Assembly: GCA_008632985.1 (NCBI GenBank)
Contig: QPGO01000166.1
Span: 1 to 64,000 of the forward strand
Length of the DNA: 64,000 nt
From: Psammoneis japonica
Taxonomy: Eukaryota
Direction of reading: 5' to 3'
Shown in pieces: positions 19,201-58,619 of this stretch. The translations under genes and the position numbers were made by a program. The notes below the pieces were generated by a model. The model ran no database searches, had not been told where the DNA came from, and saw only the letters and a program-made list of their open reading frames with translations. The stretch's first letter is position 1, and the number at the start of each line of letters is the position of its first letter.

Positions 19201-19420
19201 GTCTGCAACTGTGCCTCCTCTCTCTGTGGCAGTGCAACATTGGTGGCCCCTTCACAGTCTTCCTCCTCTGTGGAAGCTCCCAGCTTTCCTCATTTGCTTG
19301 GTCACCTTCACAACTCAGTCTCTCTCTCTCTCTCCTCCATTGTGGCATTTCTTTCTCCCTCTGGGTGTCGTGGCTCGAGGTCTGGTTTCTCGTGGCTCAT
19401 TGCACTGTCAACCAGAGAGA
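16215..19420. mobile_element. TpA/CpG-depleted block 1: degenerate repeat or transposon-derived DNA
   Basis: Only about 12 TA dinucleotides in about 3.2 kb by manual scan; TG/CA enriched; ORFs Tyr-free; abrupt return to normal composition at both ends. No TE family could be recognised. Confidence 0.6.
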
Positions 19421-19770
19421 GTACATCACTCCCATACGAGAGAGTCGAGAGCAACAGGCACAATCTACTGCGTGGTAAACGCAAAAAAGACTCTGTCGAA
19501 TTGGTCGCAGCTCTGAATCGTCGCCTCAAACAATGTCAAAGACAAAAAAAAATTGGTCGAGCAGCGCAGGAGAAAGACTACCGTAGTGTTAGACTATTCA
19601 GAAATAAGGATAACCAGTTCTTAACGCATTAATGCTTCATTCTGCAGTGTCTGTATCCTGGATAAACTCAACACCAACCGGCACTAATAGCGCAAGATCG
19701 TCGTACAACCAAAATCACCACTGCTGGTTCGTCTTGTTCAGACGCTTCTCAATATTGACGCATCTACCCA

Positions 19771-26667: not shown

Positions 26668-27254
26668 AATTGTGCTGCAAGCAGTCAGCAGCAAGCAGTG
26701 TCTCAATGACAGCAAAATGATGCAAGGCAGGTTCAGCCCACTCTTGGATTTCATCTTGCCTCTCTTTTCAACACACACAACAATGCACAAACCATGAATG
26801 ACAACATGGCAAGATGTGCCTTTGGCACTTCACATTTGTGTTAGACACAGCATCCATTGCGTGGAGCCATTTCAAACAAATTTTGCACTGCATTTTGTGC
26901 TGACATGTGTCCATGAAAAGAGAAGCAAGATGAAATCCAAGAATGTTGTGCTGCAAGCAGTCAGCAGCAAGAAGTGTCTCAATGACAGCAAAATGATGCA
27001 AGGCAGGTTTGGCCCATTCTTGGATTTCATCTTGCCTCAAAAATTGTGCTGCAAGCAGTCAGCAGCAAGCAGCGTCTCAATGACAGCCAAATGATCTTGC
27101 CTCTCTTTTCATGGACACATGTCAGCACAAAATGCAGTGCAAAATTTGTTTGAAATAGCTCAACACAATGGATGCTGTGTCCAACACAAATGTGAAGTGC
27201 CAAAGGCATCTTGCCATGTTGTCATTTGTGGTTTGTGCATTGTTGTGTGTGTTG
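26668..27254. repeat. Composite repeat: three direct copies of a gtgctgcaagcagtcagcagcaag... unit plus an approximately 160-bp inverted repeat (26769-26931 / 27094-27254)
   Basis: Direct alignment by eye; the ORF track shows PLALHICV..HSIHCVE.FQTNFALHFVLTCVHEKR on both strands. Confidence 0.9.
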
Positions 27255-30200
27255 TGCATGTGTGCTGCTGAAACCACTTGTGAGTTTTCCCTTTTTTTGG
27301 AGTCACATGCCTCCTGGCACTTGTCAATGCAGACTCCACTTGGGCTGATTGCCCCATGTGCCAATTTGTGTTTTGCGTCTGCCACATGGACAACAATTTG
27401 ACACAAAAACCATTGATGGATGAGTGCAGGCAATGTGGCAAAACACGGTCTCTCTCTCTCTCTCTCTCTCCTTCAAACGTCTTGCCAAGTTTTAAGTTTG
27501 AGACTTGCAAGTTCTAAAAGTGCCTTTTGTGCATTGAAAACAAGTTTCTGATGTGCGCGAATGTGCCAGAGCCTTTCAACAAAAACAAAAACACAGATCA
27601 CATGGTGGGCATGTGCAGCAATGCATGATGTGCACACACACACAAAGGCACTTGCACATGTCTGTGCATTTCCTGTTTTTGTCAGTGTTTGAGGCAGCAG
27701 TCAGAGAGGGGCCTCACTGACCAGTCATGTGCAGCAGGCATTGCTTGCTCTTTGTTGCCTCCTCTGGATCCTCTGAGGAACAGGAGGGGTGCACCACCAC
27801 AGAAGCAAAGGTCCAATGTGTTCCAGCCTCCTCACATGAGTGCACACACAAAAAAAGACATTTCCACAATTTTTGCACGGTTGCCAACTCACGATTGCTT
27901 TGTTGGGTGGAAAACAATGTCTTCGCTCATTTGCAAAAACCAACAAAACCCACCAAAGTGCACCAAAACAAGCAGTTGCTCTTCATTTCCCACTTTCATT
28001 GTGCCAAGAATTGTGTCACAACACAAGCATTGTTTGTCTCAGGAGCGAAGTTCTGTTTGTCCTTGTGAGCACTCAAGTCAACAAAGTCTTCCAGTCATTC
28101 ACACAGTTGTCCTCTGAGGACCTTCAATGCAACAAATCAGACAGTGAATTTTTTGTGTTGCACAAAAAGTGCTTTTGAACTGGGGACAAAAGTTCTCGTG
28201 CAGTGAGACATGTGGAAACAACTTTGCCGTGCATGGAATTCTCTGTGGGTTGCCACCTGTTTTTTGCACAAGTTGTCGCATTGGTGTGTGGTTGTTTTTG
28301 ACCACTTTCTGTGACTTTGCAGCTGCGCAAGCAGCCCCAACAACCAATTTGAAGTGGGCGCGGTGTGTGTCATGAAGGAAATGGTGAGCTGTGCACTGTG
28401 TGCCAAAATGGACCTGTTGCATTTAAAGGATTTTGAAGGTCTCAATGAACCACCCAAAAGTTGATGCACAAGGTCATCAAAAACAGATCTGTGTGACATG
28501 CAAACAACCACATGATGCAATTTGGATGCAGAGGATTCAATGGTGGCATTTGCATGCACTGAGTGCTTTTGTGATGGGGGTTGGAATGGCCCAAGAAGAG
28601 GGTGCAAAAACTTTGCACTTGAAAGTCACTGAGATCTCCTCAAGTCTGCAGCCATTGCAACAACAAACAAAAGAGAAATGGCACCTGCAGACCAAGTGAA
28701 ATGTGAAAGCTCCAATGGTGTCATTTTTGTTGCCACAAGGCAGGTGGAACAAAGAAAGCAGCCACTGTCATGTGTGCAGCCATGTCATCACTGTGTTGAG
28801 CAACGCTTCAGGAGTTTGAAGAAAATGAATGTTCCCCTGGAGTGTGAACAAGGCATGTTTGATTTTTTCAATGCTGGAGTTCAAGACAATTGTGCCCAAA
28901 AATGTGATTGTCAAACAAATCCATGAACCCATTGTTTTGCATGTCACCAAGCACTGGAGCATGTTGCCAGGCACAGATGCACGTGTTGCACAAGCCTGGT
29001 GCATGCTTGTGCTCATTTTGCAGCTGAGCAGATGTGCAAGTGGCTGTGGTTGTGTGCCAGCCATGCTGCAAAGCCAAAGCCTGCAACACCCCTCTCCCAA
29101 AGCTGTGCTGCCAAGTTGACAAAAGTTGTGAATGCAAAGCTGTGCATTTTGCAGCATTTGCCACCAAGCACTGCAACAAACTTGGGGCAAAACTTTAGAT
29201 TTGACAGTGAAGAAGTTTGCGCACCACATGTGAGCAAGCACACAACATTCACACCAACAGGCACTTCTCCTCAAAATGTGACCAGCTCAGGGTGTGTGTG
29301 AGTCACAGGGAATCATTTGGCACTTTGACCTGGTGAGGGCACACTCAGGTGTGTTGTGTTGGCCCACCTCTGTTGAGGTGCATGCTCTCTTGTCAGCATT
29401 TCTTTTTTTTTCATTTGTTCTCACCTTTGTCATTTGGGTTTCACGTGGATGTTGTCCCATGACCAAATCTTTTGATGTTTTGGATCTTGACTCAAGCGCA
29501 ACAATGGCTGCAACTGTGTGGCATTGTTTTGTTTAAATCCATGATGCAGCTGTGTTTGATTGTCACCAAAGACATTTCCGTTGAGGAATTTTTCAAAAAT
29601 GTCAACAAAAATTTTGCATTTGATGTGTTTTCACATTGGATGTTGACATGCTCAGTTGTCAGGGCAACAAATCCAACTGGTCTGTTGTGTGAAGTGACTT
29701 GCACCGCAATTTGTTTGTCCCTTCTGTGACACTTTCCCGTGCAAATTTTCTTCCTCTCAAGTTTTTCTTGCTTTTGCAAAGTCCAGGCAATGTCAACAGG
29801 AGGATGGGTTCCCACAAATCCACTTGGTCTGTTGCATCAAGCAACTTCCACCACAATTTTTTGTCCTTTCTGCAAGACTTCCACATGAATTTTACCCTGT
29901 GAACTTTTGCTTTCTTTGTTTTGACCAGGGTGAGATTTGTGTGCCCAACAGGCAGGCAAAGAACAGATGCACATGTTGTGGAAAAATCTCTCAAGCACCA
30001 TGATGACTCCCTTTTCACTTGACTCAGTCAGCTCAAAAATGGCAGCACAGAGGAACAAGCATTGTGCCCCTCTTCCAGTGATTCTGAAGAATCCACTGGT
30101 GATGAAAAAAGAGGCCCTTTCTTCCGACCAGTCACAGTGCAGGGAACACAGAAATGCCTCTGGTGGTGACTCTCTTTGCAGACCATGCACATGAGGCAGA

Positions 30201-33200
30201 AAAGACACTTGCATTTCTGTCACTCACACCTGCAGCCACAAACAATTGAAATGTTTTTGAAACTTGGGGGCACAATGGTGCAAAGCAGCGTGACCACAGC
30301 AAGTGCAGGCAAACACACAATGCAAAAACAACAAGGAGTCAGGGCAACTTTGGCTCAGAGACAGATCAATCCAAGTGAGCAGATGGCCAATGATGAAAAG
30401 GTTGGCAGAGACATCAAGGTGAGAGATCATGTCAAAGAAAAGGTGTTTGTGAGCACTGCACTCATGTTTGGCACAAAGCAATTGGACAAAACAGGGCGCT
30501 GCACAAAGACAAGTTTTGCTGCAAGTGTTGGCCTCGCTGGGGCATTGATGTTCAGCAAGATGCAAATCTGACACCAGCAGCTTTGCACCGTTTCCAATTG
30601 TGTGTGGGCATGAAAAGATGAAAGGGCAACTCTCAGCTCTCACAGGTGTTGTGAACCAGCTTGAGAACATTGCCAACAAATGGCTCATGGCAAAGAAGGT
30701 TGTTGCAAAGAAGTGAAAGTGTGCAAGATGACTCAAGTGCTGTGTGGCAAGCAACCAAAGCCCAGCAAAGATGTGTGCAGGAGATGATGCAAGATGCCAA
30801 GGAAAATGGCAGAGGATGGTCACCAAGAGCCAACAAGTTCTCCAAGGAGCCGGTTGTGGAGGTCAAATGAGATGTCAAAAGTGAGTGGCTTTTGTGCAGA
30901 ACAGTTGCAGCCAGCCATGGAAAGCAAGTGGGGGAAAGACTTGACAACTTGGATGATGCGGAAGACCACATGGCAAGCTGCACCAAGATCTGCAAGCTGG
31001 AGTTGACAGTGGTTTGGGAGATGATGACCCATGAGCAGAGATGCTTTCATTGTTCAACATGAAATTCCAAGGCAACTCTGCACCACAGAAGCTGTGCGCC
31101 AGATGGCAACTGTCAAATTGATCATTTTGTGTGTGCACAAACTCAACGAGTTTGGCCATGCTGGCTGGGTTGACAAGTTCTTGATTTGTGCCCATGGAGA
31201 TGTTTGCTGGAAGAAAAGGACACTCACTTGTTTTCAAAACACCCCAATTTGTCACAAATGGGGTGAATTCATGAGGAATCTGACTGATCTGTCAACAAAT
31301 GAATTTGCATGTGTGCACTCACACATGTTTTGTGCAGTCAGTCTGGTCATCTGCGGGTTGGAGGATTCTTAGATTTGGGTCCCTGTGACCCAGAAACAGC
31401 CTTGCGGTTGTCATCAATGACAATCTTTGCAGCTGCCTTTGCTGCTCATTGTTGAACTCAGCACACAAAGCACAGCAACAATGCTCCATCTGCTCAGGAA
31501 CCTGGGCAATGGTCAGCACACAGCAGCAGCCTTGTCAAAAAGCACCACTGTTGCTGCAGCAACAAAGCAGAGGGCTGCTCTCTGTGTTTGCCACTTCAGC
31601 ACCCTGAGAAAAAGGAGCTGTGCAGAAGAAAAGGTCAGCACCAGATGCACAAGCCATGCAACTCTTGCACTGATGAAAATGGTCCCCAACAACATGCAAG
31701 CTGAGTGTGCTGCACATCAGTGCTGGAGTGCATGAAGTGCAGCTGCTCTTCTTGAAAAAAAAACTCCAACAAAGTGTTGCTGCTGGACCAAAGAAAAACA
31801 TGTTCCCCTGTTTGTGTGCAGGCTGTTGGAGGGCAATGCCCCAACTGCACTCAAAGACAAGCTGCAAGACTTGGCCACCAAAGCAAATCAGATCTTCATG
31901 CAGTGTGCAGATGCCATGACAAAACAAAGCAAAGTCTTTCCCAGGAGGGCAGTGCTGCCACACAAGTGCTGCTCAAGGTGTTTTGCACAAAAGCCTGTGA
32001 AAATGAAGACTTGGTGGGAATGTGTCACAAGAGAGCCATTGAGCTGAGCAGCTGTTTGAAGAATTCTCCACCCTTGGTTGAAGATGGGGGTGGCCTGCAA
32101 GATGTGAGGACATGTTGGCAAGCTTGTTTGAGTTTGGTCTGCTGTGAGAAGCCAGCAGCACTGCACGGCTCCACAGGACTTTGACCCACTTGCTCACACA
32201 ACCTTCAACAAGTTTGTCTTATTTTGCAAATGAGTCAAGCCCCGCCAAAGGCAGGCTGCAAAAGGCGCCCAAGGACAAGAAGGCCTCCCTCTCTTCAGGG
32301 CACCTTGGGCTGTCAAAATTGTCCATGAGCTCAAACCCCACAAATTGTGGGGCTGGACAATCATGGAGCAGCATGCTCTCAGTGGTCATGTTTGCTGTGT
32401 GAGCCACAGCATGCCCTGCTGCTTGGGTGCTGTGCAGTGCACCACCCACCATGCTGGCCTGGGTGGGTTCACACTCTGGACACAAAGCAGAAAAAGCTTG
32501 TCTGCACATCAAGAAAAAGAGTTCTGAGTGCAGAGAGTGCCAGCACACAACAGGGCAGCTGATGCTTGTCAAACAGGAGCAAAAAACAAAATGTGGGGCT
32601 GGCTGTCTTGTGTGGGCCCTGCCAAAGGAGTTGCATGCACAAGGGAGACCAGCAGCATGCTGTGCACACAAGATGGTGTGCACTGATGGACACAATGTGC
32701 AGTGCACTGCAGATGGCAACCCATCATCAGCAAGATGCATCTGGCCTGCTTTGCAGCCCTTGTGTCCTGGGTGTCCTGGGGGGGGGGCACCACCATGCAA
32801 GGCACACACAGCACTGGCAACTGGCAGATGCTAGCATGACATGGCCTGTGTGAGATGCAACCTTCTTCACAAAGGTGAGTGTCAGGCACAGACACACCTG
32901 TGCTGCCCAAGCTTGTGCAGCTTGTGAGTGCACATTGGCATGGTTGCTTGCCAGCTGTGAGCAAACCCACATCACTGGATTGTGCACTCAGCTGCTGCCC
33001 CAAAAAGCTCTGCTGAGGGAATGAAGCTTTTCAGTTGTGAGTGGAGAAGCTTGCTCAAATGTGCATGATGTGGCTGCACACAGCTTGTGTGGCTGAAGAA
33101 TGTGTTTCAGCAAAACATGTTTTCTCAGAAGCAGTCTTTTGACTCTGTCATTGGCACTGATCTTCACAGCTGCCTTTTAGGCTCATTGCCAAATTTGGCA

Positions 33201-34153
33201 CATGATGAGGAAATGGCTGCTGCAAAGCAAGCTGGACACAGGCAGTTTTTGAGCACATTGCATTTTTTGTTCATTTCTTCCATCATTGCTTGTTTTAGTG
33301 GAAACAGGCGCTGCTCTGCATTTTGAGATGCTCTGGCAAAAAGAGATGTGAAGTCCTGGTGCACAAGAACTTTCCAAAGATGCACCACAAAAGATGTTTC
33401 AAAAGCCCAGCTTGCTGCAATTTTGTGCACACTCCTCCCTCTGCACCTTGTCCCCTCTCTTGCCACCACCCCAGTGTGGTGCAGTGGGTCAACAGACACA
33501 AAGCTTGCCTTGTTGCTTCAAACATTCAAGCTTCTGAGTTGCTTGCCAGAGAGAAAACAAAGCTTTTTCCTCAATGTTCCACAACAACACAAGGAGGCCA
33601 AGGGCTGTCTAATGTGTGGTTGACAGATCTGACACAGCAGCAGCAGCAGCAGCAGCCTTGTGAAGATCTGGCATTTCAGCTGGTTTCAGCACAAGGTGCT
33701 GATTGTGAGATGTGCTGTGCTTGTCAGATGGGGCAGCAAACTTGCCCCCCCATGGTGCACACCACATGTGGCAAAATCCTGCTTGTTGTTTCATGAAACC
33801 TTTCTCTGCATTTTGAGTGCAATGTTTTTTGTGGTGGGGTGTTGCCTGATGGCAAGCTGCAAGGGAAAAAATGGCAAGACTCAGCAAACTTCTTCTGAGA
33901 ACCACACTTCCAAAAAGTTGCCTTCACCCAGCCACTCTCTCACTGGGTCATGTTCTGGAGCATGAGGCATCATGTGCACTTTTGAGTGTGCCACATTGGA
34001 AAAGCAGCTTTGCAAGTCTTGAGAAGCCACCAACACCTTCCCATGGGCCACCCAAGAGAGAGAGAGAGAGAGAGAGTTTGCCAATTTTGTTTGTTTGGGG
34101 TCACGGTTGAAGGGAATCAAGCCCGCCAGCAACAGATCAACCAAAGAGGACAA

Positions 34154-35030
34154 ATTTAGCGCTGAAATGACTCAGTGGAAAAAAACATTTTTGACACACA
34201 CAAAATGTGTGTCCACACAAAAACATCATGCACAAGCACCCGGATGCACATTTTTGAAAGTGTCACAACCCAGAGGCCATGTGGGATCACACCAGCGACA
34301 CACATGTGACAAAAAACCCGGATGCACATTTTGTCAAATGTGTGGGACATTTTGAAAAATGTGCACCCTGGCAAAATTTTGCACATGTAGAATTTGCACT
34401 GGAAGTCTCGCAGATGAGGACTGGCCAAACGCACTTGTCAAGTCCAGGTTTTGCACCCCAAAATGTGCTGAAACTGGCTGTGTGTTTGCCAGGCAGATGC
34501 AGCACTGATCTGTGACATGACAGCCTCCCTCCAACACTGCGCACCGTCTTCACACTGACACAAGCTTCAACAACTGTGCCGCACAAATCCAATGCCCACA
34601 GCCAGATCCTGTGCTGCGCTCTTGAGATCCTCCTGTGTGAGTGACTAGACAGCATGCACACTGTCACTTGCTTGAGCAGGTGACAGCTGCAAATGCATGC
34701 AACAGTGAGCCAAATGGCTGTCACTTGTTTCCAGTTGCTTCTGTGCAGTTGCTGGCTCATCATGAGTGCATTGCAACATTTTGGTGTGATGCCACACAGA
34801 ATTTCCTGGTGCATTTCTACACAACACTGGTGCACTTTTGTGCATTCAGTGCAAAATGAGCTCCAAAAACTGAAAAATGCCCCCCATGCATTCAGCCAGT
34901 CCTTGCTTGCAGACATGTTTTACACACCCGGATGCACATTTTGAAAGCTGTGTCACACATAAAAAGTTGTGTTGCAAGGTGTGCAAAAAATGCGCGAGCT
35001 CACCACATGGAAAAAATGCACATGTGGCTG
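34154..35030. repeat. MITE-like or subterminal repeat region with recurring cccggatgcacatttt motif
   Basis: Motif at about 34239, 34317 and 34927, with tgtcaca/aaaatgtg submotifs; ends not defined. Confidence 0.5.
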
Positions 35031-38000
35031 CACAGCTGGCAGTGCAATGGTTGCAGGGGCTTGAGTCACAGGAGCTTGTGTCCCTTCCCATGCCTGGCTT
35101 TTCCTGCAGAGCTGCAAGACAAAGATCACCTTCCCAGCTGCTGTGTGGCTGTGTGTGCCAACAGAGGAAACAACATGTGCAGCTGAGCACAGCCACAAAG
35201 GCAAGCCACAGTTGGAAAATGCAAACAAGAGTTGATGTTGCTGGCTGAATTTTGGGCTTGTGTCAAAACTGCATGAGAAGAGACTTGGAGTGCCAAGATC
35301 TCTGGGGCAGAGTCTCAAACCTTTTGTTGCTCAGTGCAGCAGCACATGCCTGCAGTGCTGCCAAAAGCACCACAGAGTGCTGGGGCTGTCAAGGCCAAGC
35401 AAAAAACTGCAAGAGACAACACACATGTCATGTGGGGGCAGAGGGTGGCAGAGGCAATCTGAGAAGGGAAAAAGGGCTGCTGAGGGGAGCAACCAAGAAT
35501 CTTGCTGTGTGTTGCAATCACCAGGTTGAGGGCAAATGAAGATCACAGGGCTTGGCAGGCCTTTTTGTGGCTGGCATCACAACAGGCTGGCAAGTTTGTG
35601 TGCTGTGAGCAGGTTGTGTTGCAGTTCTCAGCACTTTTTTTACTTTTCTCATGCTTGATCTGATGTGTCTGCCAACATGGGCTCTCTGTGAGCCATTGGA
35701 GGGTGTGGGATGCAAGAGGTGGGCAAAACAGGCAGTGCCAGCTGAGCTTGTTTGCCTCAGAAGTTTTTGCTTTTCTCAAGCTGCAGATCAACCTGAGCTC
35801 CTGTTTGGGTGCTTTTTGAAATTGCCAAACACACTCAGGAGATGCTGAGCCCAGCAGAAGTGCCGCTGGCAAGAAAGGAGGCCTGCAGCAAGAAGAAGGT
35901 TGTGTCGCACCATGCCATCTCTTTTGACTTCTGCCAAATTGTTTCCACATGGCAGCTCTGATGTTCCAGTTGGTTTGCATTGTTGAGTGATTTGTGTCAA
36001 AAAATCTGATGTGCTGGCAGCACAGGAAAAAGAAGACAAGCCCACCAGCCACTTGTCAAGATTTTTGTCTGTGGGCTGTGTGCGAAAGTGTGCCCCCCCC
36101 CCCCCCTCTGAGCAAAGGCAATTTGCAAAAAGAAGGTGAAAACCAGCAAGAACAGTGAAGCTTCAAGAAAAAAAGCTCTGCATCAAAAATCTGGGGCAGA
36201 AACAACAGAGCATTTTGACCAGTGTGCACAACTTGTTGTGCATTGAGAAAAGTGCCACGCATCTCTTTCCTCTGCCCTTGCTCCACAACCCAGGCAGGCA
36301 AAACAAGCACTGGCTTCAACAAGAGACAAGTGGCTGGCTGGGCGACACTTTCATTCACAAGGCCCAAAGGCTCTCTAAAAGCCACAATCTGTGAGAACAC
36401 CTGCAACTTTGTCAGATGATGTGAGCTGCAACACATGACTTGCCTTGAGTTGCTGAAAATGCCCAGAGTTTGGGCAATTCATGAAAGCAAAAAAAAACTG
36501 TGGGACATCTCCAATGAGCACCAGCCATTGTGCTTGACAGCACTTTGGGTGGGGGGGGTGGGCTGCCACATCCAACTGAAAGATGGGGCTGAGCTGTGTC
36601 ATGGCTGTTTGGCCCCACAAGGTTCTCAGGGTTTGTGTGCAGACCCTGAAAAATGAGGCCCAATGGGCATGCAATGTGGGCACTGTCAAATGGGCAAATT
36701 GATTGGAGTGGGCAGCTCTTTTGTTTGTCACTCCCAAAAAGGACCAGACAGCACAGCTCCTTTGTTTGTCATTTCCAAAAAGGGCCAGACAGCACAGCTT
36801 GTCAATGGTTTTTACAAGCTGAGCAAAGTGATGAAGTGAGTGCCAAGTGTCGTCTGACCCCACATTTGCAGCACAATTTTGTCTTGGAAAAAGCACAAGG
36901 TGTGGTTGTTGCTGATGGGCTCATGTGTGCATGTCTCAGGAGGAAACATTGGGTCCATTCCAGGATTTTGTGTGTGTGCTCATGTGCAGGCAAACAGACA
37001 ACCTTCAAATTTTGATTGGGTGCACACAAAATGCAAAAAACTCAATGCTGTTGAGCACTTGCACATCTGCGTTTTGACAAACCATTTGAGGAGGAGCATG
37101 ACATCACACCCAAATGGCAACTTTGAGCAGCAATGTTGTGGGGCAGTTGACACTGGCATCCTTTTGCAACAGCAAAAAGCTTGGCATTGCCCAGCCAAGT
37201 TGCACAATGATGGAAACAGAATTGCCAGCCATTGTGGAGGCACTGAAGGAGCTCAGGTTCACTCATCTTGGGCAGCAGACAGTTGTGGATTCTTGTCATG
37301 AAAACCTCACACACAAAGCACCCAACACCACCAAACTTGTCATGTGTGCTGGTGGCTGACATGTGCAAAAGTGTGTGGGCCCAAATCATGACATGTCAAT
37401 CAAAGATGACCATCACAATTTGGTTGCTGATGCACCAAGTTGCCTCAATCTCAGTTTGTGCTGGAAACAGCAAATGATCCAAAGGCCCTGGAAATGCCAG
37501 AGAAGTGCACCCTCTGCATGAAGGTTTCCTGGCAGAAGTGAGAAAGATGCGTCAACAACCCCCACCAGCTGTGAGAAAATTCAAGCCAAACAGCAAAGGG
37601 CAAGTGCCTGCCACAAAAGCCTGCTGCATGGGCTTTTCATGAGGTGGCTCACTGAAAAAAAGCAGGCAAAAGACAAAGTCATTGTCCCAGCATTGCCACA
37701 AAAGAAGCAGATGGCTGGCCTGGCTGGCATCATTTTCAGTGGTGCCATCCTGGAGATGCTTGCACAGAAACATCTGTTGCCCCCAACATCTCCACTGGTG
37801 CAGTGTGTGAGCTGCAGCAAGATCTGTGTGCTCCAAGCAAAAAGCACTCCAGAAGAGCCAAAAGACAAAATCTCAAATGGAGGGAGTTGGCAGCAAAGAG
37901 GCAGCTCTGAAGTTGTCCTGTGGGAGAGACCCAGTGCATGGGCATGACACCAGGGGGGCACACCATCCAGCAAAAAGAAAAAGAAACCACTGCATTTGTG

Positions 38001-39559
38001 GGTGGTCAGGATGGTTGGTCTGGCAGCAACTGGGTGGCCAAAAACTGCCACAAAGTGTTGGTGCAAAAAGCACTGACATTGCTCATCTGATGTCATCAAG
38101 CAAGCCTGATCATGCAGGTGTCCATGGCTGAGAAAGGTTGTCTTCCACAGAAAATGGCTGTGGACTTAAAAAGAAACTGGGAGCACCAAATGTGCAACCC
38201 ACGCACAAGCTTCACAGTGGAGCATGCACACCAGATGGATTGGGAGTGTGCGAAGCAATCATTTTCAATCTGGTGTGTGGAGCTGGACAAGGACAAGAAC
38301 CCACAAAGCAACAGCATGCTCTGGTCATGTTTGCCATGCAGGCCATGGCCCACACTGCCACTGCTTGAGCAAGCCCAGCAAAGAGCTGGTGTTTGGCAAA
38401 GATGTCAGCATGTTCTTGAGTGTTGCCAGCTGTGCTGGCTGGAAGCACACACTCAGGAGAGAAGCAAAAGCTTGCTTGCACAAACAACAAGAGAGAGAAA
38501 ATTCCAAGCACAGAGAGGAAAGCCAATGTGCCACAGGGCACCAGCTGGCACTTGTCTGACAGGGACAAAGACAGAAAGTGGTGCTGAGTTTCTCATGCAG
38601 ACCCTGCCATTCATGTGCACACATGTGGTGGTGTGGCGGTGTGCTGATCGATGCATTGCACAATGACCCACAGCAGCAGATGGCACTGTGAGCCACACTC
38701 TTTGTCATGGGATGGAAAATTTGAGTCCCCCCCATGATGATGCCATGCATGTGGAAGAAATCCTGCTTGCTTCGCTGGATTTTTTTCATGATGGCAGGTC
38801 AAACACACCACAGAGTGGCATGTCTCTGTGCAGAGTGTGAGCAGCAACACATTTTGGGTGCCCACATTGGAGAGCCCAGCTCTTTGCCAAGACTGCCCTG
38901 GTGCTGTGTCCAAAAACAATCTCAGGGGAAGAGTCTCCAATCTTGTTGCAGCTGGCACAGCTGCACAAGTCAGCAGCACTGCCAAAGGTGCTGCACTGGG
39001 GCAGCCAGCTGTGCTGAGTGCCAAGCAAAATGCAAAAGACAGCACATGCATCATGCAGAGCCAGAGGCCAGTGGAGGCAATCTGAGAAGGGAAAAAGGGC
39101 TGCTGTTGGCAGCAACCAGGAGTCTTGCTTTTTGCTCCAATGTGGCAGGCCCACTTGCAGTTGGTGTGATGGCAGGTCATGAACAAATCTGCAAGCCAAG
39201 TGTTGGTCAAACTGCAACTCTTCTCAACCCTCTTTTCTTCCAGGAGAGGAGAACAAGAGAGGCAAGTTGGCTTGGTGTCATGCTTGTCACTCTCTGAAAG
39301 CCGCAATCCATGAGAACACCTGGGACTTTGTCAGATGTGAACCACAGCTGCAGCAGCTGGGAAACAGGCCAATCGTCCTTCGGCCAGGCCCACAGCAGGC
39401 CCACAGCACAGGCCCACCTGTTGGGGGGTGGGGTGTCACGTGTCACACACACTCTCTGCTCTCTAGAGTGGCCAGAGCTGGCTGGAGTAGAGAGTCTGCC
39501 GCACACACTGCACATGTGGCCCCAAACTGTTGACTGTTTCTAATTGCTCTACCTCACAG

Positions 39560-41669
39560 AGGGAGTTGCACTCTCAAGCGTTGTTGTCACCCACTGCTGC
39601 AGCTGCAACGGCAGGCTCAGCAGCCCCTCCATCGGCACCCACACCAGACTGGTGACACTCCTCCAGCTGAGCATCAATCCTGGCTTGAAACTTGGCTGTT
39701 TCCTTGCGACATTGCTCCAACTCCTCACTGCTCATGTCATTGAGATCAGCATCTGCATCTTCAACAAAGACAGGTGAGGAGGGGACAAAGAAGCCCAGGC
39801 AGTTCACAACACATTTTGCTGGACCCTCAATCCCTTCAGTGCCCTTGGTCGTCTTTGTGTTTGGGATGGGACCATGCTGCTCCATCCATGCATGTGGAGA
39901 CTTGTGCCCTCTGGCGGCATTTTCCAGAGGCCCATGAAGAAGGGGTGGCAAGCACAGTTGCTCAGGTCCATGACATGCAAGACACATGGGACATCAGATC
40001 TGTGTTTCAACATGCACTTGCAGCAATTGTGCGAAGAAAGATGCAGCTTGTTGTGGATGTCTGCAATGGACAAGGCATCCCAGCAGTGGTCACCCCTGTT
40101 TCGTCAAACAAGAATGAACACTGCACAAGTGGGAGATCAAATCAATGAGCTGGCGCAAAGCAATGGAGACTTGCTCGTCACACAGGAGGCACTTGCTCAA
40201 CTCAATCACAATGTCAGCAATCCAGACTTGTCGCTTGCAGCATTCCAAATTGGCCAAGTGCGTGGTCACAGATGCTTTGATGCGCTCGCACCTCGCCTCG
40301 ACACTTTCGAAAGCTTCTGTGGCCCGCTCCATTTCATCCCGGGCAGCGCACAGTGAGCACTCAACGTTGATCACCTCCTTGAAATTTTTGTCTCATGACT
40401 CCTCACTGTTCACTTTGACTGCTTCCCACCTGATCTTGTTGATCTCAAGGTTGTCGATGTTCTGCACCAGGTTGTTCCTTCCAATGCACATCAGTGCACT
40501 GGGGCAAGGGTCCTTGGCAATCTCCTTGACAAGGTCAGTGCAAATGGGAACCCGAGCCCCATCTTTCAGCATCAAGACCTTCTTGCACTCGTTGGATGCC
40601 TCGACCCTGCTCACGTCAAGATGGTCCCCTTTCTTCTGCAGATGCTTCAAAGCCAACTTGTCCTTGGTCATGCCAAGTGCTGACACGGCGGACGACACCA
40701 TGCCCCTTGTCACATCAGCAACAACAACTCTGTCCTCTGCACCATTGAGGCCTGTGGAGGAGCCACCTCCTGATGTTCTTTGTTCCAGCATTGGCGGATC
40801 CAGCGTGTTGGCGGCGGAATCAGGCACCGAAGCAACATCGGAGAATGAAAGCAACGCGGCTCCGTCAACAGAGGCGGCAAGTCATGACTGAGAAAGGAAG
40901 GATGAGGTGCCAACAGAAGTGCCGGCGCGTCATGACAGAAAGAGGAAGGATGAGGGGCTGAGCTGGTGGGTTGCTGCTGGTGAGCTCATGGCGTTGGTTT
41001 TTGTCCTTTTGGAGCACTCAACGTTGATCACCTCCTTGAAATTTTTGTCACATGACTCCTCACTGTTCGCTTTGACTGCTTCCCACCTGATCTTGTTGAT
41101 CTCAAGGTCGTCGATGTTCTGCACCAGGTTGTTCCTTCCAATGCACATCAGTGCACTGGGGCGAGGGTCCTTGGCAATCTCCTTGACAAGGTCAGTGCAA
41201 ATGGGGACCCGAGCCCCATCTTTCAGCATCAAGACCTTCTCGCACTCATTGGATGCCTCAATCCTGCTCACGTCAAGATGATCCCCTTTCTTCTGCAGAT
41301 GCTTCAAAGCCAACTTGTCCTTGGTCATGCCGAGTGCTGACACGGCGGGCGACACCGCGCCCCTTGTCACATCAGCAACAACAACTCTGTCCTCTGCACC
41401 ATTGAGGCCTGTGGAGGAGCCACCTCCTGATGTTCTTTGTTCCAGCATTGGCGGATCCAGCGTGTTGGCGGTGGAATCAGGCACCGAAGCGACATCGGAG
41501 AATGAAAGCGACGCGGCTCCGTCAACAGAGGCGGCAAGTCGTGGCTGAGAAAGGAAGGATGAGGCACCAACAGAAGTGCCGGCGCATCATGACAGAAAGA
41601 GGAAGGATGAGGGGCTGAGCTGGTGGGTTGCTGCTGGTGAGCTCATGGCGTTGGTTTTTGTCCTTTTGT
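39560..41669 (-). pseudogene. TpA-edited gene relic of unknown function with its 5' part tandemly duplicated
   Basis: ORFs 40930..41484, 40393..40854, 40090..40374 and 39574..39987 read as a natural globular/coiled-coil protein but have no Tyr, with His/Cys at plausible Tyr sites (LKHLQKKGDHLD, VPICTDL, EESCDKNF). Confidence 0.6.
40355..41669. repeat. Tandem duplication, 2 x 657 bp
   Basis: gagcactcaacgttgatc at 40355 and 41012; copies differ at about 22 positions. Confidence 0.95.
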
Positions 41670-41797
41670 TGGAGCACATGGTGGCAGTGTGCAGTGTTTG
41701 TATTCAGTGATCGGCGGCATCGCTCGAGGAGAAAATGAGCCGCGCGAGAATTTTGGGAGAGACATGATGCCATGGTGTGACGGCCCGCCGTCGTACA

Positions 41798-42112
41798 GTA
41801 GAAGGCTCGTAGGCACATACCCGTGGGCACATACATGGTGGGCACTGCCCACCGTCGTACTCGTAGAAGGCTCGTAGGCACATACCATGGTGGCCAGCGC
41901 CCACCGGTGTAGAAGGCTCGTAGGCACATACCACGGTGGGCCAGGGCCCACCGTCGTAGAAGGCTCGTAGGAACATACCATGGTGAGCCAGCGCCCACAA
42001 TCATGAAATGTCCTGCCCACCGACGTAGCACCTCCGTACGGGTGTACTGAAAAGAGCGTCTGCCCACCAAAGCGTCCACCCCTGCCCACCAAAGCGTCCA
42101 CCCCTGCCCACG
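41798..42112. repeat. Four 24-bp repeats (gtagaaggctcgtaggcacatacc) separated by hairpin-forming spacers, followed by 22-bp tandem repeats
   Basis: Cores at 41798, 41863, 41909 and 41956; tgcccaccaaagcgtccacccc twice from 42061. Confidence 0.9.
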
Positions 42113-48150: not shown

Positions 48151-49326
48151 CTAGTTGTAGCCATTAGGATTCTTCTGCTGCCAACACCACAAGTCACGAC
48201 ACATTTCGTCCAAATCTCGCTTCGCCTCCCAGCCCATCTCGTTCTTGGCTAGACTGGCATCTGCGTAGCAGACAGCAATGTCGCCGGGTCGCCTATCTCC
48301 GATTTTGTATTTGATTTCATGACCACAAGCTTTTTCCATGGCCTTTACCATGTCAAGCACTGAGTAGCCGTTTCCGGTACCAAGGTTAAAGGTAAACATC
48401 CCTTTGCCATGCCTCTCCATGTAGTTAATCGCAGCCAGATGCCCTTCGGACAAGCACATTACGTGCAAATAGTCCCGGACGCCCGTGCCATCAGGCGTGT
48501 CATAGTCGTTGCCAAACACGGTGAGAAACTCACGCCTTCCAATAGCAACCTGGGAGACGTATGGCATCAAGTTATTGGGAATACCATTGGGATCTTCTCC
48601 AATCAAACCAGAAGGGTGAGAACCAACAGGATTGAAATAGCGGAGCACTGTGATTTTCCACGTGCTAGTTTTGCCATCCACTTCGGTGGACCTGAAAAAA
48701 TCGCCAAGAATCTCTTCAATAAAGTACTTGGTCCTGCCATAAGCGTTCGTGATACCAACACCAACTTCAGTAGACTCTGTAATTGGCATTGTATCTGCAG
48801 CCCCATACACAGTCGCCGAAGAGGAAAATACAATGGAGTGGCACTTGAACTCGTCCATCAGACGGAGCAAGACGAACGTTCCGGTCAAGTTATTATCATA
48901 GTACGCGAGCGGAATTCGAGCACTTTCACCGACCGCCTACAAAAGCAAGTATCGTTAGTGAGACATGCAACTCAGAAGTAAACTAGAAAGAACCTACACA
49001 CTAGGAATCACATTATACGGTACCTTGAGACCAGCAAAGTGGATGCAAGAGGAGAACGTGGGTGACTCGCTAAACACCTCTCGAAGCGCAGCCTCGTCAC
49101 ACAAATCAACCTCATAGAAAATTAGGCGTTTCTTCCTAGCTTCATCGTCGAGACCCGCAATCTCAGCCACACGATCCAACGAAACGGCGCTCGAGTTCGA
49201 GAGATTGTCCACGACAACAACGTTGTAATTCTGCTCGAGCAGGCATACAATTGTGTGCGAGCCAATGTAGCCGCATCCTCCCGTCACAAGAACGTACTTT
49301 CCGTCACCTCCTTTATCGGTGCTCAT
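48151..49326 (-). CDS. galE: UDP-glucose 4-epimerase; intron 48937-49023
   Basis: VLVTGGCGYIGSHT, IHFAGLK/AVGES, FSSSATVYG, YGRTK, LRYFNPVG, GEDPNGIPNNLMPY, GTGVRDYLHV. Confidence 0.96.
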
Positions 49327-52567: not shown

Positions 52568-53814
52568 CTATTTCTTCACGATCAATTCTACTACTCGACT
52601 AGCAGCGACGAATCCAAAGGTTCCTGTGACGAAACATGCCGTGCCATATGCGCCATCGCAAAGTCGCAGCGCAGATTCTCTACCTGCTCCATTTGGCGGC
52701 GCTTTGGTGGTCTCTGTAGAATATATTGCATTGATGCCCCACTTCTTTGGCTTCGTGCGATTCTTTTTTTGAACAGAAAGTGCCACCCCTTTCTCAAACC
52801 CGTATCTTTGTCGCAAGTTCTTTCTGACGGTACCCAAAAGACGATCCCCGCTCACTCGAGTCATGTCGTCCCAGACTACCTTTGTCGGATCTGTCCTACC
52901 AGCTGAACCTCCACAAACAACAATAGGGATATTCCGAGCAACGCATGCAGCGATGAGTGCCGTCTTTTCTTTGCTTCCGTCAATCGCATCAAGGCACATG
53001 GTTAGTTCAGGTACCAGACAATCCATAATCTCGTCTACATTGTCAGTGGTGACCTAAATTCGTCACAGCAAAATTAGAATACAGAGGAACGCAAGGGACG
53101 GAAACAAAATTTCGAAAGATAGTTTGTGCCAGGAAACAGCGGTCCGATCAGAAGTACTGGGGAGGTCAAAACTTACAAAGTCAAAAATAGTCGTCACGTT
53201 GCAATTCGGGTTGATGTCGATGAGCCTCCTTTCCATCGCTTCAGTTTTAAGCTGGCCTACAGTGGATGACTTTGCGTGCAGTTGACGATTTGTGTTTGAA
53301 ATACAAATGTCATCCATATCAATAAGTACGATATTTCCCACTCCTGACCGACAAAGTGCTTCCGCTGCCCAAGATCCCACTCCGCCGATCCCAACCACCG
53401 CCACCGTAGCACGAGTAAGTCGATCAATGACCGCGAGTTGATTATCGGTAACCACTGATTCTTGTTTCGCGGCACTGTCTTCTTGTGTATAAAGTCTAAA
53501 AAAAAGGGAACAGAATCATATGAATCTGAGGCCCAAAGCTTCAGCAGCACCCAACATGAAAACAAAAGATGTGTCGCTCACCTCCCGACACCCCCAAAAC
53601 GCAAGAACCGCTCGTCGACATCTACAATTGGCGGATCATCCAGGGGTAGACTTGCTGGATCAATATTATTCACATCAGAAGAAGAAACGAATAATACTGT
53701 GCTTCGTTCAAGATGTGAGTGCGTTTCTTTCGGGGATATCGAAGTCAGCGGTAGTGCAGGTGCTACGACTACAAGAGCCAGAAGCAGCGTCACCTTAGTA
53801 TTTTGTACATGCAT
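52568..53814 (-). CDS. tcdA: ThiF-family tRNA threonylcarbamoyladenosine dehydratase (TcdA/CsdL-like); introns 53495-53581 and 53054-53176
   Basis: RFGGVGRLY, VVGIGGVGSWAAEALCRSGVG, DMDDICISNTNRQLHA, GGSAGRTDPT, GTACFVTGTFGF. Confidence 0.88.
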
Positions 53815-54199
53815 TCTTCTTCTTTTGAGATCCACAGTTGCAAAAACGCGAGGAGTCTCTGTTGCGACATTCACCTGGGGAACGTTGAACGAATAATGTA
53901 CCGGTATCATAGGGTCTTTTTTTTCTTTTTGAAGGTCAAATGGCTTGAACAAAGCTTTGACAAAGAAACTTGGCAGTTATATTATTACTCTCTACTTAGA
54001 GTTTGCGTTGGCCTGCACCAGAGATGTATAACATCTATATATTAACATATGTGGTACAAAGTAACTTGGGTTCAAAACTGCAATTTTGAACCCAAGCAGT
54101 GTTTCCCGAATGTGCATTTTGGTCGGACCAAATTGGCATTTTGGTCGAACCAAAACACTTTTGTCGACCAAATTGCCAGACCGACCAAATCGGTCTGAG

Positions 54200-55102
54200 A
54201 CGCTTTCTGGAATGACATGTCTCCGACCCGAGGTGAAGCGACACTGACGCACGCAACTGGAGCGGGAATCGAGGTGTCGCCATTGAGCAGCTCAGCCGCA
54301 ACTTCCATGGCAAATGAGTTGCCAATGCTCCTCCCAGCGAATGTCCCGAACAATGCAGCTTGTGAGTCTTGAATCTGTCATCCTGCTGGAAGAGCTCCTT
54401 GACATGGGTGGGGATTTCGTCGCACTTGTTTTCGCTCCCTCGGAGGCGCCTCTTGAGAAGATGCTCGTCAAACCCATGATGCAACCCCATCTTGCTGTCC
54501 TGTCCCTTGACATCCTTCAAAGGATTGTCCCGCTTGCCAAAGGAGATGGAAGCATCACAGACAAAGTCTGCCGGTGTGACTGAACCTCGGAAACAAACTG
54601 CAACTCGTTTGCGTGCTGGATCGACTCCAACCACGTGCACAAGTTCCTCATCTGGATCATCATCGCCACATTTTGCAATGTGCGCTGGCTCAAGGTTCTT
54701 CTCCTTCCATGGGTTTGACCACTTTTGTGAAGAAGAATGACGTTGGTGTCTTTCTTGGATTGCTTTCAGAGCACTCATTGCCATTTCGTGGTCTGAATCC
54801 CCCAGAGCTTTCTCAATTTCCTCCAAATTGTCATGAATCACCGCCAAGGCTGTTTCGAGCGTGAGTGGCAGCTCCAAGATCTGCTCAGGGTCCTTGTTGA
54901 GTTTGGTGTCCTCTTGTTTGCATGTGCTTCTCAAGTCTGCAATGGCGCAAATCAACAGAGCCGCGCCAAGCATCTCGTCCGCCTCTTCATGCAAGTTTGG
55001 ACAAGCACACGAGTCCCAGTTGAAGGACGCCTTGGCCTGCCCCGATGTGTTGTCTTTGGCATTGCCAACCCCGCACAGCTTCACGAAGGAGTCCAACACC
55101 AT
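54200..55102 (-). pseudogene. Class 3 lipase pseudogene, TpA-edited, frameshifted and 3'-truncated
   Basis: VAVCFRGSVT, GHSLGGALAT, SVASPRVGD motifs; zero Tyr; frameshift near 54315; ends abruptly at the subterminal repeats. Confidence 0.88.
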
Positions 55103-55849
55103 GGTGAGAACGAGTTCCAGAACTGCGGCGGCTGGAAAAAACTGCGCCTGCGCTGGGCAGAGAGCGAAAAAAGCCAAACGAACAAGAAGATTTGGCGACC
55201 TCGTGCGTCGAGACCTCGAACTGTCAAACGGCTTTCTTTTCATGCAGACAGGCAGACATGCAAGGAATGCGGAATTGCCGTACATTCTTGATGATGATGC
55301 GTCATGCGGGCGGCGTTCATTGCAACACAAGACGTGGGGCTGCGTGCTGGGAAAGATTTTCCTCTCTCTAGATTTTCCCGGCGATGGTGGATGGCGGCAC
55401 ACTGTGCTGGCACAATGATGAAGACACTTCCTGCCAGAGAAGCACCACGCTGCACTGGCACAGACACCTCCTCAATGACTCCTCGGGAGGATGCGGCCAA
55501 CCCCGCTGGGCTCTTGGCGATGAACCCAGAGAGACAGCCCTGCCGCTGCCTCGTGGTTCTCTTGATGTGCAATTGGCGTGATGTCTCTCCAAGCTTCCCC
55601 CTGCATCATGTGCGATTGTGAAGGACTTGGGAGGCAAACAAGATTCTCTTCATGTTGTGCAATGGACTCGAAGCTGTCAAAAGAGAGAAAGCATCAAGCT
55701 TGCAGCACCAATGCTCATGTGCACCATGCTGACAAGACACATCTTTGTTTCTGCCCAGCCCGCATCAACTTTGAGATGAGCACCAAATGTGGGGTTCAAT
55801 GGGGAAAGCCTCCCACGCTGTCTCTTTCAAGCTCAGTGCACTCTTTTGA

Positions 55850-56830
55850 TGCCGCAAAAGAGCCCAGCACCATGCTGGTGGTAAAACACAATTTCAGTGT
55901 CATGAGAAGGCAGTGTCAATGCTGCCAGTTTTCCAAATTTGTCAGGATGTGAGTTGGAGGAGGAAGGCTTGAACACGAGCTCAACAAGAGCTGAGTTTGC
56001 AGAGCAAGAAATGGCGGCACTCTCAGTCATGCCAGACACAGCAGTGGCCATTTCCTGCTTGCAGGTGGGGAGGCTTTCCGCAATGGCTTGCTCAGTGGCT
56101 TCGTTGGTGGCGGCAGGAAAAACATGGATTTCCTCAACACGGGTCTGGATGACAAAACGAGCAAGATTCTGAGCGCAACATTTGAGCCAAGGCTCTGTCG
56201 ACTTGTTGAAGAAGACAGCATTGCCACTGGAGTGTGGAACAATCAAAAGAACCTCTTGAACAGTCAGGGTCAGATCAAGTTGAAATGTGCCGACTTGTTC
56301 ATTGTCGAAAAGCTTCTTCGAAATCGACTTCAAAGCAACAAAAGCCGAGAATGCGGCGGTGTCAACATTGCTGCCGATTGAAGCAATGCCACAGGCAAGG
56401 ATGGCAGCAAAGAGAACAACAAAGATCATGAAGGAGATCGACATGGTTGATGCTTGATGCCAACAACAAAAGACGAGTTGTCCGTTTTGTGAGATGGAGT
56501 GCGAAAGCGGAAAGCGTGGAGCCAAGATTCGCGTGCTGGCGGCTGCGTGGTTTCTGTGCAGTTCCGACCAGAGATCACAAATAAACTGGGACACGTTTTT
56601 CTTCTGTTGTCAAAACCTGACCAAAACACCGTTTGGCGTTCCTCGGCGCCAATCTCAATGTCGTTTCGGAGACTCATGACGTGATCAACTGTTGCGATGC
56701 CGACAGGTGATGATTTGAACTGCTGCCACAACAACTCAGTCCAAACGTTCTCGGTGTCATTGCCCAACAAATAGCCAGCAAAAGACTCTTTCATCAAACT
56801 TTTCATTATGTTCCTGTTTGTTTTGCTTAA
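55850..56830 (-). pseudogene. Gene relic(s) of unknown function in the TpA-depleted zone
   Basis: Protein-like ORFs 55833..56594 (signal-like MSISFMIFVVLFAAILA) and 56426..56836, nearly Tyr-free; coding strand uncertain. Confidence 0.35.
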
Positions 56831-57121
56831 AAGCACGAAAGCCAGAGCTTAAGCCAAGTTCCTGCTTGACAACATTCGTGCGGGATAGGAGCTAGGAGCG
56901 AACGGTCTACGACTCATGTGATACCTCATTAAGTGGACAAATGAAAAGCTATTGGTTAGAACGTACTTCACATATTTCAGCTTGATTATTATATTTACAA
57001 CATTGTCAAGCTATTCTTTCTCTGAATATCATGGCAAGCACACCAACACACATACACATATACTTGGAGACAGATAGGTCCCCAGCTGAAAGTGGCGTTG
57101 AAAGTATACGCAAGCTGGACT

Positions 57122-57993
57122 CTATCTGTCCAACTCAGCCAAGTTGAGCTTGGAAGCTCCCTTTGGAAGAAGCTCGGTGCCCTGCGGGGCAGGCTCAACA
57201 TGCTCATCAAAGATCCACTCCTCGCGATCGTCCGTATCCGAACCCTGGGCCCTGAGGCGACGGCGGAGCGCTTTCTCGGCCTCCATGATCAAAAAGACGG
57301 AAACCGCCATCAAAATGGTAATACCCCACTGGGTTCCGTCCATACCGGACATGCCAAAGATGGTGTCGTTCAAACCGGGGGTGTAGGTTGTGAAGAGCTG
57401 GAGCACAATGACAATAATGGCGGAATACCACAGAGACATGTTGCCCTTGAAAATACGCGGTAATTCCGTTTCCAGTGAATACGCTTGTAGCTTGTAGCTG
57501 TGGTTGTTCTTGATAGTACTGAAAGAGATCCGCAATTCCGCAGCATGCTCGGGTATGTTGTATTCCGCCTCGAGTAAGGCATTCATCGACGACAGCACAT
57601 ACGGAAGGGATTGTACGTATCCGGTCAATTGTCTTGCCAAGTCGTCTGGAGTATTTTTAATCTCGTTTTTCATTGGTGACTGTTTCGGTGTATTCAACAG
57701 GTCGTCGTCATGAAAGGACCAATTGTCATTATCGTTGTTATGTTGTGTAGGGCCCTAGTCGCAGTATCGTTTTGTTTCTCAGAAGGTGTTGTAGGTTGAT
57801 AACTGCTGCTTCTGCTTTGATTGTTATTCTCGGTCAAGAGACTGTCGTCATCAAACGACCATGCATCGTCGTCGTCGTCGCCATTGTTGTCGTTATTGGT
57901 GGAAAGCAAGTCATCTACGTCATCGTCCCATCCGTCTTGGACGAGATCGTCTGTGGACGACGCCATGGTGTTTTTTGTGTTGTGTGTCGCCAT
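57122..57993 (-). pseudogene. Chimeric fragment: N-terminus of an acidic hypothetical protein fused to the C-terminal about 110 aa of a P-type cation ATPase
   Basis: IFKGNMSLWYSAIIVIVLQLFTTYTPGLNDTIFGMSGMDGTQW...IMEAEKALRR matches the Cation_ATPase_C tail; no phosphorylation or nucleotide-binding domains upstream; frameshift near 57740. Confidence 0.65.
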
Positions 57994-58170: not shown

Positions 58171-58619
58171 ACGCCCGTAGCGCTTCAGTAGAAATTTGGT
58201 AAAGAGGAGCTTTTTGTGCGGGGCCACACGATTTCTACGAGTACGTAGACAGTACGGGGCCGGCTACTTGATCATACCCATCCTCAAAAATGGATATATT
58301 TATGCATAATGACGCTACGGGGCTGGCCGAACAATTCTACTGCATGTCAACGGCAAGAATTTCTACTTTTTTTCAGTACCACAGATTCGCTACGTGCGGC
58401 CCCGTACTCATAACACGTGCTTTCCCTTCCCATGCAACGGCCAAAGTGGATTTGAAGTTGGGTTCAAAATTGCAGTTTTGAACCCGAAAAAGGGAGGCAC
58501 GCGCTTCTACAAGTACTCACGAGGCGGCAGGCGACCTGCCTAGCACATCTACCTATTTCCCATCATATCAGCTTGCCTCTTCAATTCTGATCACAGAACA
58601 GCACTTTGATGTATCCAAC

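Follow-up and report, generated by a model that had tools for sequence, protein, structure and literature searches.

A TA-free lipase fragment in the diatom Psammoneis japonica and its probable origin by local hypermutation at TpA

The locus and the lipase fragment

The window analysed here is the whole stretch of 64,000 nucleotides at positions 1 to 64,000 of contig QPGO01000166.1 of Psammoneis japonica. It is gene-dense, with few and short introns. For an ORF resembling UDP-glucose 4-epimerase (48151-48936), all of the best named relatives are diatoms, with Phaeodactylum (78%) and Cylindrotheca (77%) ahead of Leptocylindrus, Pseudo-nitzschia, Mayamaea, Cyclophora and Eucampia. The protein collection searched had no entry for ten of the window's full-length ORFs.

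Positions 54200-55102 on the minus strand hold a fragment of a class 3 lipase that is read in two frames. Frame 1 (54326-55102, minus strand, 259 codons, free of Tyr and TA) runs from a Met at 55102 to the GHSLGG nucleophile motif, and frame 2 (54201-54317, minus strand, 39 codons) reads SFAMEVAAE...PVACVSVASPRVGDMSFQKA, which aligns with ...PVTCVSVASPRVG..FQ.AF of the homologues. Both frames match Pfam Lipase_3 (PF01764) above the cut-off of 22 bits, frame 1 with 26.3 bits (E 7.6e-6, profile 2-78 of 140) and frame 2 with 25.8 bits (E 1.1e-5, profile 66-115), which agrees with the family named in a preliminary description of this DNA. The nucleophile elbow G-x-S-x-G is kept, the GHSLGG of the fragment being aligned to the GHSLGG of the homologues. 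The domain is incomplete, as the window spans profile positions 2-115 of 140 and intact homologues span 2-138. The stretch ...DPVT.MP of the homologues presumably holds the catalytic Asp, by our reading of the family, and the homology of the fragment ends before it, at 54200. The part that by this reading holds the catalytic Asp and His is missing from the window fragment.

The preliminary description had reported a lipase of about 300 codons with neither TA nor Tyr. Both absences hold (0 TA in 903 bases and 0 Tyr in the 298 residues of the two homologous frames), but the window splits the reading into 55102-54326 and 54317-54201. The codons quoted there are all present, namely TGC of LLIC (54947-54949), CAC of ELVH (54635-54637), CAT of DEH (54461-54463), TGC of NKC (54422-54424), CAC of KTH (54362-54364) and CAT of KLH (54353-54355). 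The two frames contain 14 His and 11 Cys, compared with 9-12 Tyr, 6-9 His and 2-6 Cys in the same columns of the homologues.

The lack of TA extends well beyond the reading frames. The fragment sits in a TA-free run of 1219 bases, from 54062 to 55281; the background of the window has 0.0406 TA per base and a longest TA gap of 194 bases, and the chance of 1218 bases without TA at the background rate is approximately 3e-22. This run is part of a larger TA-poor block, here block C (54063-56582), which contains 3 TA where about 102 are expected (rho TA 0.02, CG 0.68, TG 1.57, CA 1.41). Its lower edge is sharp, with a TA every 5-10 bases up to 54062 and then none for 1219 bases, and its upper edge lies between 56582 and 56807. 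The three remaining TA (55281, 55369 and 55882) are all in the part upstream of the lipase (55103-56582), which has no recognisable gene and likewise has a diverged second copy in the sample. Open frames are long in block C because TAA and TAG are gone. One such frame, 55836-56444 on the minus strand, was considered as a gene and rejected, as it had no Pfam match and 0 hits among 1.84 billion representative sequences; it is probably not a gene.

Comparison with homologues and environmental relatives

A BLASTP search of a collection of 5.8 billion proteins gave 5 homologues near the length of the fragment and 9 longer ones. The closest was 54% identical, and no parent or sister-species protein of the lipase was found in these two length classes of the collection. 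The homologues carry PF01764 and are 37-56% identical to the window fragment in the alignment; their clusters supplied no names for them. Thirteen of them formed the outgroup alignment, from which three members of the 90% cluster of P0006 and the weakest hit, P0140, were left out.

In the columns where at least 50% of the 13 homologues have Tyr, the window has His in 6 and Cys in 5, so that 11 of 11 are replaced. Among columns conserved to at least 75%, the window retains 0 of 6 Tyr as against 110 of 125 other residues. An earlier alignment of eight rows, four of them from one cluster, had given the same picture (Tyr kept in 0 of 8 columns, other residues in 120 of 151; Fisher p = 7e-6). The other repeated loss is from Thr to Ala, in 4 of 8 Thr columns, which is expected where a TA spans two codons (NNT followed by ACN).

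The claim that lipases commonly have Tyr at these positions is therefore supported column by column. The contrary pattern named in the preliminary description, orthologues that likewise carry His or Cys and are devoid of TA, was not what we found: the homologues have Tyr, and the DNA of 12 of 12 environmental relatives, located with a 6-row lipase alignment, contains 41-60 TA, or 4.5-7.0 per 100 bases, over the part that matches, compared with 0 in the window fragment.

A second copy of the lipase in the same sample

A second copy of the lipase, which does contain TA, is present in the same sample. It is known from contigs only, which come from three runs of one sample and were compared with positions 53000-57600 of the window, and it is approximately 93% identical to the window fragment. 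An X2 contig of 933 letters, which spans 54200-55117, shows 62 differences and 1 gap, and a contig from X1 covers 54200-54453 with 14 differences. Short contigs of the window's own locus agree with the window at 1-2 differences each. Diverged contigs also cover the DNA upstream of the lipase, with 21 differences in 632 positions, 18 in 249 and 30 in 369.

The kinds of difference were classified for 27 of the 62, all within 54263-54682. At 21 of these 27 sites the second copy has TA and the window has TG (11) or CA (10), so that both strands changed about equally. The other six consist of three CpG in the second copy that are CA or TG in the window, two of the reverse kind and one other. The excess of TA sites is significant (binomial p = 4e-11) under a generous null in which all differences are transitions placed at random. 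Outside TA sites the copies differ at only 6 of 420 positions (approximately 1.4%), while every TA has been lost in the window copy.

At six codons (54355, 54423, 54463, 54635-54637, 54669 and 54680-54682) the window's His or Cys corresponds to Tyr in the second copy. Further pairs, with the state of the second copy given first, are Ile/Met, Thr/Ala, Lys/Glu, Asn/Asp, Ser/Gly and Val/Ala. Where the homologues are conserved, their states are those of the second copy, and the window copy is therefore the derived one. The second copy is also transcribed. X2 contigs skip the two GT-AG introns of a neighbouring gene, so X2 is RNA-derived (its run is labelled 'DNA?'), and at all 27 listed sites X2 has the letters of the second copy only.

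These data bear directly on the proposal made from the window alone, that TAY codons had become CAY or TGY by A to G changes at TpA on either strand of an ordinary host-type gene. A search for the intact parental lipase, with a tabulation of substitution contexts, had been suggested there; the sample contigs contain the copy of about 93% identity, with 21 of 27 listed differences at TA. The codon changes are borne out by the 13 outgroups and, independently, by the second copy, and the near-equality of TG and CA upholds the claim for both strands. As the lipase is host-type and has relatives among diatom-like sequences, its TA-free composition was acquired, as had been suggested, and both the TA-bearing second copy and the TA-normal relatives agree with this.

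Truncation and the adjoining repeat

The break between the two frames probably has a simple cause. The window is without one G behind 54317, and the extra G is found in every short-read contig of the same sample that covers the site, at 119.7 of 119.7 depth in X1 (two contigs, one of which is the near-identical own-locus contig) and 63.3 of 63.3 in X2. With this G the frame is restored and reads on ...ALATSFAMEV. Since all contigs carry it, the own-locus one included, the frameshift of the window is probably an assembly error. Given this likely single-base error, other apparent frameshifts of the assembly may be artefacts as well.

The truncation at 54199/54200 is real. Homology to the second copy and to all homologues stops at this breakpoint; past 54200 the second copy continues ...QKAFRYL and the homologues AF..LE, and the window enters a palindromic repeat instead. 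In the contigs, X2 has a loose end of 12 letters before 54200, and two second-copy contigs begin at 54200. The term pseudogene, which the preliminary description had used, is thus justified by the truncation in a high-copy repeat, and its support from the frameshift is doubtful in view of the extra G. A continuation of the lipase beyond the repeat was also considered, as positions 53578-53952 on the minus strand read ...KKDPMIPV, and was rejected. Those positions belong to the 5' part of a gene resembling ThiF/TcdA (53024-53870, minus strand), which has its own signal-peptide-like start and two GT-AG introns, 53496-53581 (86 bases) and 53052-53174 (123 bases), both of them spliced out in X2 contigs.

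The palindromic repeat (53945-54199) contains inverted repeats and is present at high copy number, with a summed contig depth of 1441-2391 compared with 60.9 in the single-copy flank. Its hairpin recurs in inverted orientation at 58458-58485, as an exact match of 28 bases, and the repeat is possibly a small, non-autonomous transposon. Block C reaches 137 bases into the repeat (54063-54199), and this portion is without TA. At 54156, within it, the window has C(A), and other copies of the repeat have T(A) at 850 of 1210 depth.

On the other side of the lipase, positions 55926-57600 have a summed contig depth of 270-850 and are multi-copy DNA. The C-terminal domain of a P-type ATPase (57122-57754, minus strand) lies in a TA-normal stretch of multi-copy DNA, and a near-identical contig with a depth of 221 and one difference covers 57133-57431, where TA is normal. 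Several near-identical copies thus exist at 57133-57431 and TA is nevertheless retained, which indicates that repetition alone is not the trigger and that copy number and TA loss are uncoupled.

Other TA-free blocks in the window

Besides block C, the window contains three other blocks poor in TA. Block A (16525-19422, 2.9 kb) has rho values of 0.06 for TA, 0.09 for CpG, 1.89 for TG and 1.87 for CA. Block B1 (22887-39999, 17 kb) has rho values of 0.03 for TA and 0.11 for CpG (over 23000-39999), and block B2 (40000-41700) contains 0 TA and has kept half of its CpG (rho 0.55). In blocks A and B1 the rho of TG and CA is 1.86-1.96, compared with 1.12-1.20 in the background, where TA is at 0.56-0.67. 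TG and CA are about equally frequent in all four blocks. The sum of TA, CG, TG and CA per 500 bases is nearly constant (approximately 120 in the background, 123 in block B1 and 116 in block C), so the gain of TG and CA accounts for the losses of TA and CpG. AA and TT are not depleted.

A Pfam scan of the TA-free blocks covered 127 ORFs of at least 90 aa and 137 of the 166 ORFs of 55-89 aa; not among the 137 were the 28 short ORFs of block A and one that lies at the margin of block B. The scan gave two weak matches only, DUF7633 (E 0.005) and RT_RNaseH. The latter, at 37102-37356 on the plus strand, scores 22.9 bits against a cut-off of 24.8 and is the only protein signal of block B1. Blocks A and B1 have no internal repeats and, apart from the RT_RNaseH match, no protein family. 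Both probably consist of old mobile DNA in which editing is complete and methylation has led to decay.

Block B2 contains a tandem duplication (40355-41017 and 41012-41677) whose units are 96% identical. About 14 of their 22 substitutions set CpG against TpG or CpA, and there is 1 TG-versus-CA site where about 13 are expected. It follows that TA loss preceded the duplication and that CpG decay is ongoing there. Editing triggered by repeats was considered for this block and is not supported by the tandem duplication, given the same count of TG-versus-CA sites. Four residual TA lie within 90 bases (39464-39550), surrounded by TA-free DNA, at the junction of the CpG-free and CpG-bearing parts of block B; two elements that differ in age may adjoin there. 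Two short tandem arrays, both rich in TA and CG, lie just outside the two ends of the 18.8-kb TA-free block, one at 22725-22770 (a 9-base unit, five times) and the other at 41861-41998 (a 47-base unit, three times).

The blocks in the window share their adjacency to repeats, and the older ones also share the loss of CpG. These features would fit silent, modified chromatin. We regard the loss of CpG through cytosine methylation as a separate and slower process, which is finished in the older blocks and has barely begun in block C.

Base context of the changed sites

Each TA offers two candidate adenines, one per strand, and the polarised sites reveal which of them was edited. Where only one of the two lies 5' of C, the adenine before C was edited in 7 of 8 sites (p = 0.07); where only one lies 5' of T, the adenine before T was the edited one at 2 of 10. 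When blocks C and B2 are taken together, the excess over background is 56 for NTGC and 9 for NCAC. The 8 sites and the comparison of composition with background genes hint at a weak preference for an A followed by C (T-A-C). For a process directed at thymine, the same preference reads equally well as G-T-A. The natural site of TadA-type tRNA adenosine deaminases is U-A-C, and TadA/ADAT and ADAR enzymes prefer a 5' U or T.

Proposed explanation and alternatives

We consider it likely that the fragment represents a spare diatom lipase copy, truncated and, after copying, hypermutated at TpA in a bounded domain, with an unedited and transcribed copy elsewhere in the sample. The direction of change, its specificity for TpA, its strand symmetry, its saturation and the sharp edges of the domain are direct observations at this locus. 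The events may be reconstructed as follows. The duplicate would have comprised the gene from its start codon to a point some two thirds through the catalytic domain, together with 1.5 kb or more of the DNA upstream. A mutation process that stayed within the sharp limits of a 2.5-kb domain would then have turned essentially every TpA into TpG or CpA by an A-to-G change on one strand or the other, with one hit per TA. Tyr codons would thereby have become Cys or His, and Ile, Thr, Lys, Asn and Ser codons would have changed where a TA lay within or across codons. Because non-transcribed upstream DNA and both strands are affected, the process presumably acts on DNA. It would be the same kind of local hypermutation as has been measured in Bigelowiella natans, and is probably enzymatic and directed at marked DNA that is silenced and associated with repeats.

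Adenine deamination by a TadA/ADAT-like enzyme, suggested by the requirement for a 5' T and the apparent preference for an A before C, is a serious candidate for the chemistry, if one somewhat short of probable. More tentatively still, diatoms could possess a guided base-editing system that marks a domain, converts every TpA within it with a preference for TAC and outpaces the decay of CpG. The mark would be a silencing state, rather than foreignness, and could spread from a repeat onto a host gene copy. Since the same signature occurs in a rhizarian alga, such a system might be an old and widespread defence of the stramenopile-alveolate-rhizarian (SAR) lineages, and a natural adenine editor of double-stranded DNA.

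The strongest competing explanation dispenses with defence. Silent diatom chromatin may carry a modified base at TpA, such as 5-hydroxymethyluracil, whose mispairing would yield T-to-C changes as a by-product, in the way that CpG is lost under cytosine methylation. In double-stranded DNA, T to C at TpA is indistinguishable from A to G on the other strand, JBP-type thymine hydroxylases and dinoflagellate 5hmU favour TpA, and the TA-poor blocks lose CpG over time, as modified and silent DNA would. A very high rate would be required, however, to change every TA against approximately 1.4% of positions elsewhere (6 of 420), and the TAC preference, readable as GTA, favours neither chemistry. We regard this explanation as rather unlikely.

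A different challenge concerns the status of the second copy. The TA-bearing lipase might be the other allele, one haplotype having been edited after the repeat inserted, as collinearity between the two versions holds from 54200 to 55117 or beyond and is seen again upstream, and the contigs are seen without their flanks. Alleles should each have half the depth of the flank, yet the depths are equal (60.9 in the flank, 59.4-70.2 for own-locus contigs of the window version and 60.3-62.7 for the second copy). Moreover, at 54355-54538 two contigs other than that of the window's own locus carry the TA state, which makes three copies or more. Separate loci in one genome fit the equal depths and the TA-state contigs better than two alleles do, which leaves the allelic reading improbable. 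The second copy could also come from another organism in the sample; the equal depth of the flank and both copies argues against this.

RNA adenosine deaminases prefer a 5' U (Mettrop et al., 10.64898/2026.01.13.699255), and a lipase transcript might thus have been hyper-edited from A to I and then reverse-transcribed into the genome as a processed pseudogene. A single cDNA would show changes on one strand only, which is not the case for 11 TG and 10 CA; on the upstream side the domain also goes approximately 1.5 kb beyond the start codon, it includes 137 bases of the repeat, and the block ends in the repeat and not in a poly(A) tail. This origin is very improbable. Hardly credible at all is the view that there was no burst of mutation and that the composition is intrinsic or selected (by codon bias, or by avoidance of TA-targeting transposons or nucleases) or an assembly artefact, for which the under-representation of TA in the background (rho 0.56-0.67) could be cited, since conserved Tyr, Thr, Lys and Ile have been lost in a truncated gene, independent short-read contigs repeat the window sequence with 1-2 differences, the relatives are TA-normal and AA and TT are undepleted.

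Relation to known systems

Hypermutation of a spare lipase copy at TpA, which we favour, has a close counterpart. In our full-text literature search, TpA hypermutation was reported for Bigelowiella natans only, in a 2026 preprint, and for no diatom; the accessible part of a diatom mutation-accumulation paper (PMC6604790) contains neither 'TpA' nor 'hotspot'. According to the preprint, 230 of 231 new mutations in two viral inserts of B. natans were A>G or T>C, every one of them at TpA, 324 coding sequences are nearly free of TpA, and 124 clusters of windows are poor in TpA and rich in CpA and TpG (Mettrop et al., 10.64898/2026.01.13.699255). It also describes an enrichment of transposon domains among the low-TpA coding sequences, along with some host-type domains, and proposes an ADAT2-like adenine deaminase as a candidate (10.64898/2026.01.13.699255).

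The two cases agree in having transitions only at TpA, TpG or CpA according to strand, delimited regions, and a loss of TpA with a gain of CpA and TpG. They differ in lineage, since ours is a diatom (a stramenopile) and B. natans is a chlorarachniophyte (a rhizarian). They also differ in target, which is a truncated host-gene copy beside a repeat here and a giant-virus or virophage insert in B. natans. Foreign DNA is not what was targeted at our locus, as the lipase is host-type and has an unedited transcribed copy. It does adjoin a high-copy repeat, and block B1 contains the sub-threshold RT_RNaseH match. The editing here is saturated (0 TA in 1.2 kb), whereas the giant-virus region of B. natans is described as keeping 3.3% TpA. 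Finally, the sister copy gives site-by-site polarity here, and the signature is historical, in contrast to the new mutations recorded in B. natans.

Fungal RIP is similar in its dinucleotide-specific transitions, its action on both strands, its delimited extent with slight overrun and its ruin of a duplicated gene. RIP mostly changes C to T at CpA and thereby creates TpA, whereas here TpA is destroyed and CpA and TpG are made, which is the opposite direction. In addition, only one copy was edited here and neighbouring near-identical multi-copy DNA was left untouched, so that a homology trigger is unsupported. Methylation-dependent CpG decay likewise turns a palindromic pyrimidine-purine step into TG or CA in silent DNA, and blocks A and B1 show it alongside the loss of TA. 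It concerns a different base, however, and is much slower here (CpG rho 0.68 in block C; loss of CpG from the window copy makes up 3 of the 27 listed differences).

TadA, ADAT and ADAR enzymes match in that A to I reads as A to G and in their preferences, which fit the TpA rule and the apparent preference for TAC. In their known roles they act on RNA, whereas both DNA strands and non-transcribed DNA were changed here. To what is known from B. natans, this locus adds a second major lineage, a host-gene target, saturation, sharp boundaries, the timing of editing with respect to CpG decay and an initial indication of a preference for the 3' base.

Significance

The finding has a practical side for annotation. 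In edited genes Tyr disappears, His and Cys increase, and open frames stay long owing to the loss of TAA and TAG, so that such blocks will be misread by gene finders and in homology searches. The lipase pair itself is a natural experiment, in which an unedited sister and many outgroups polarise each change together with its context. It shows that host DNA can be targeted, that editing goes to completion and that it outruns CpG decay; editing halts within approximately 100-200 bases of the boundary. With its signature found in this diatom, TpA hypermutation is extended to another major lineage and to organisms whose genetics are well developed.
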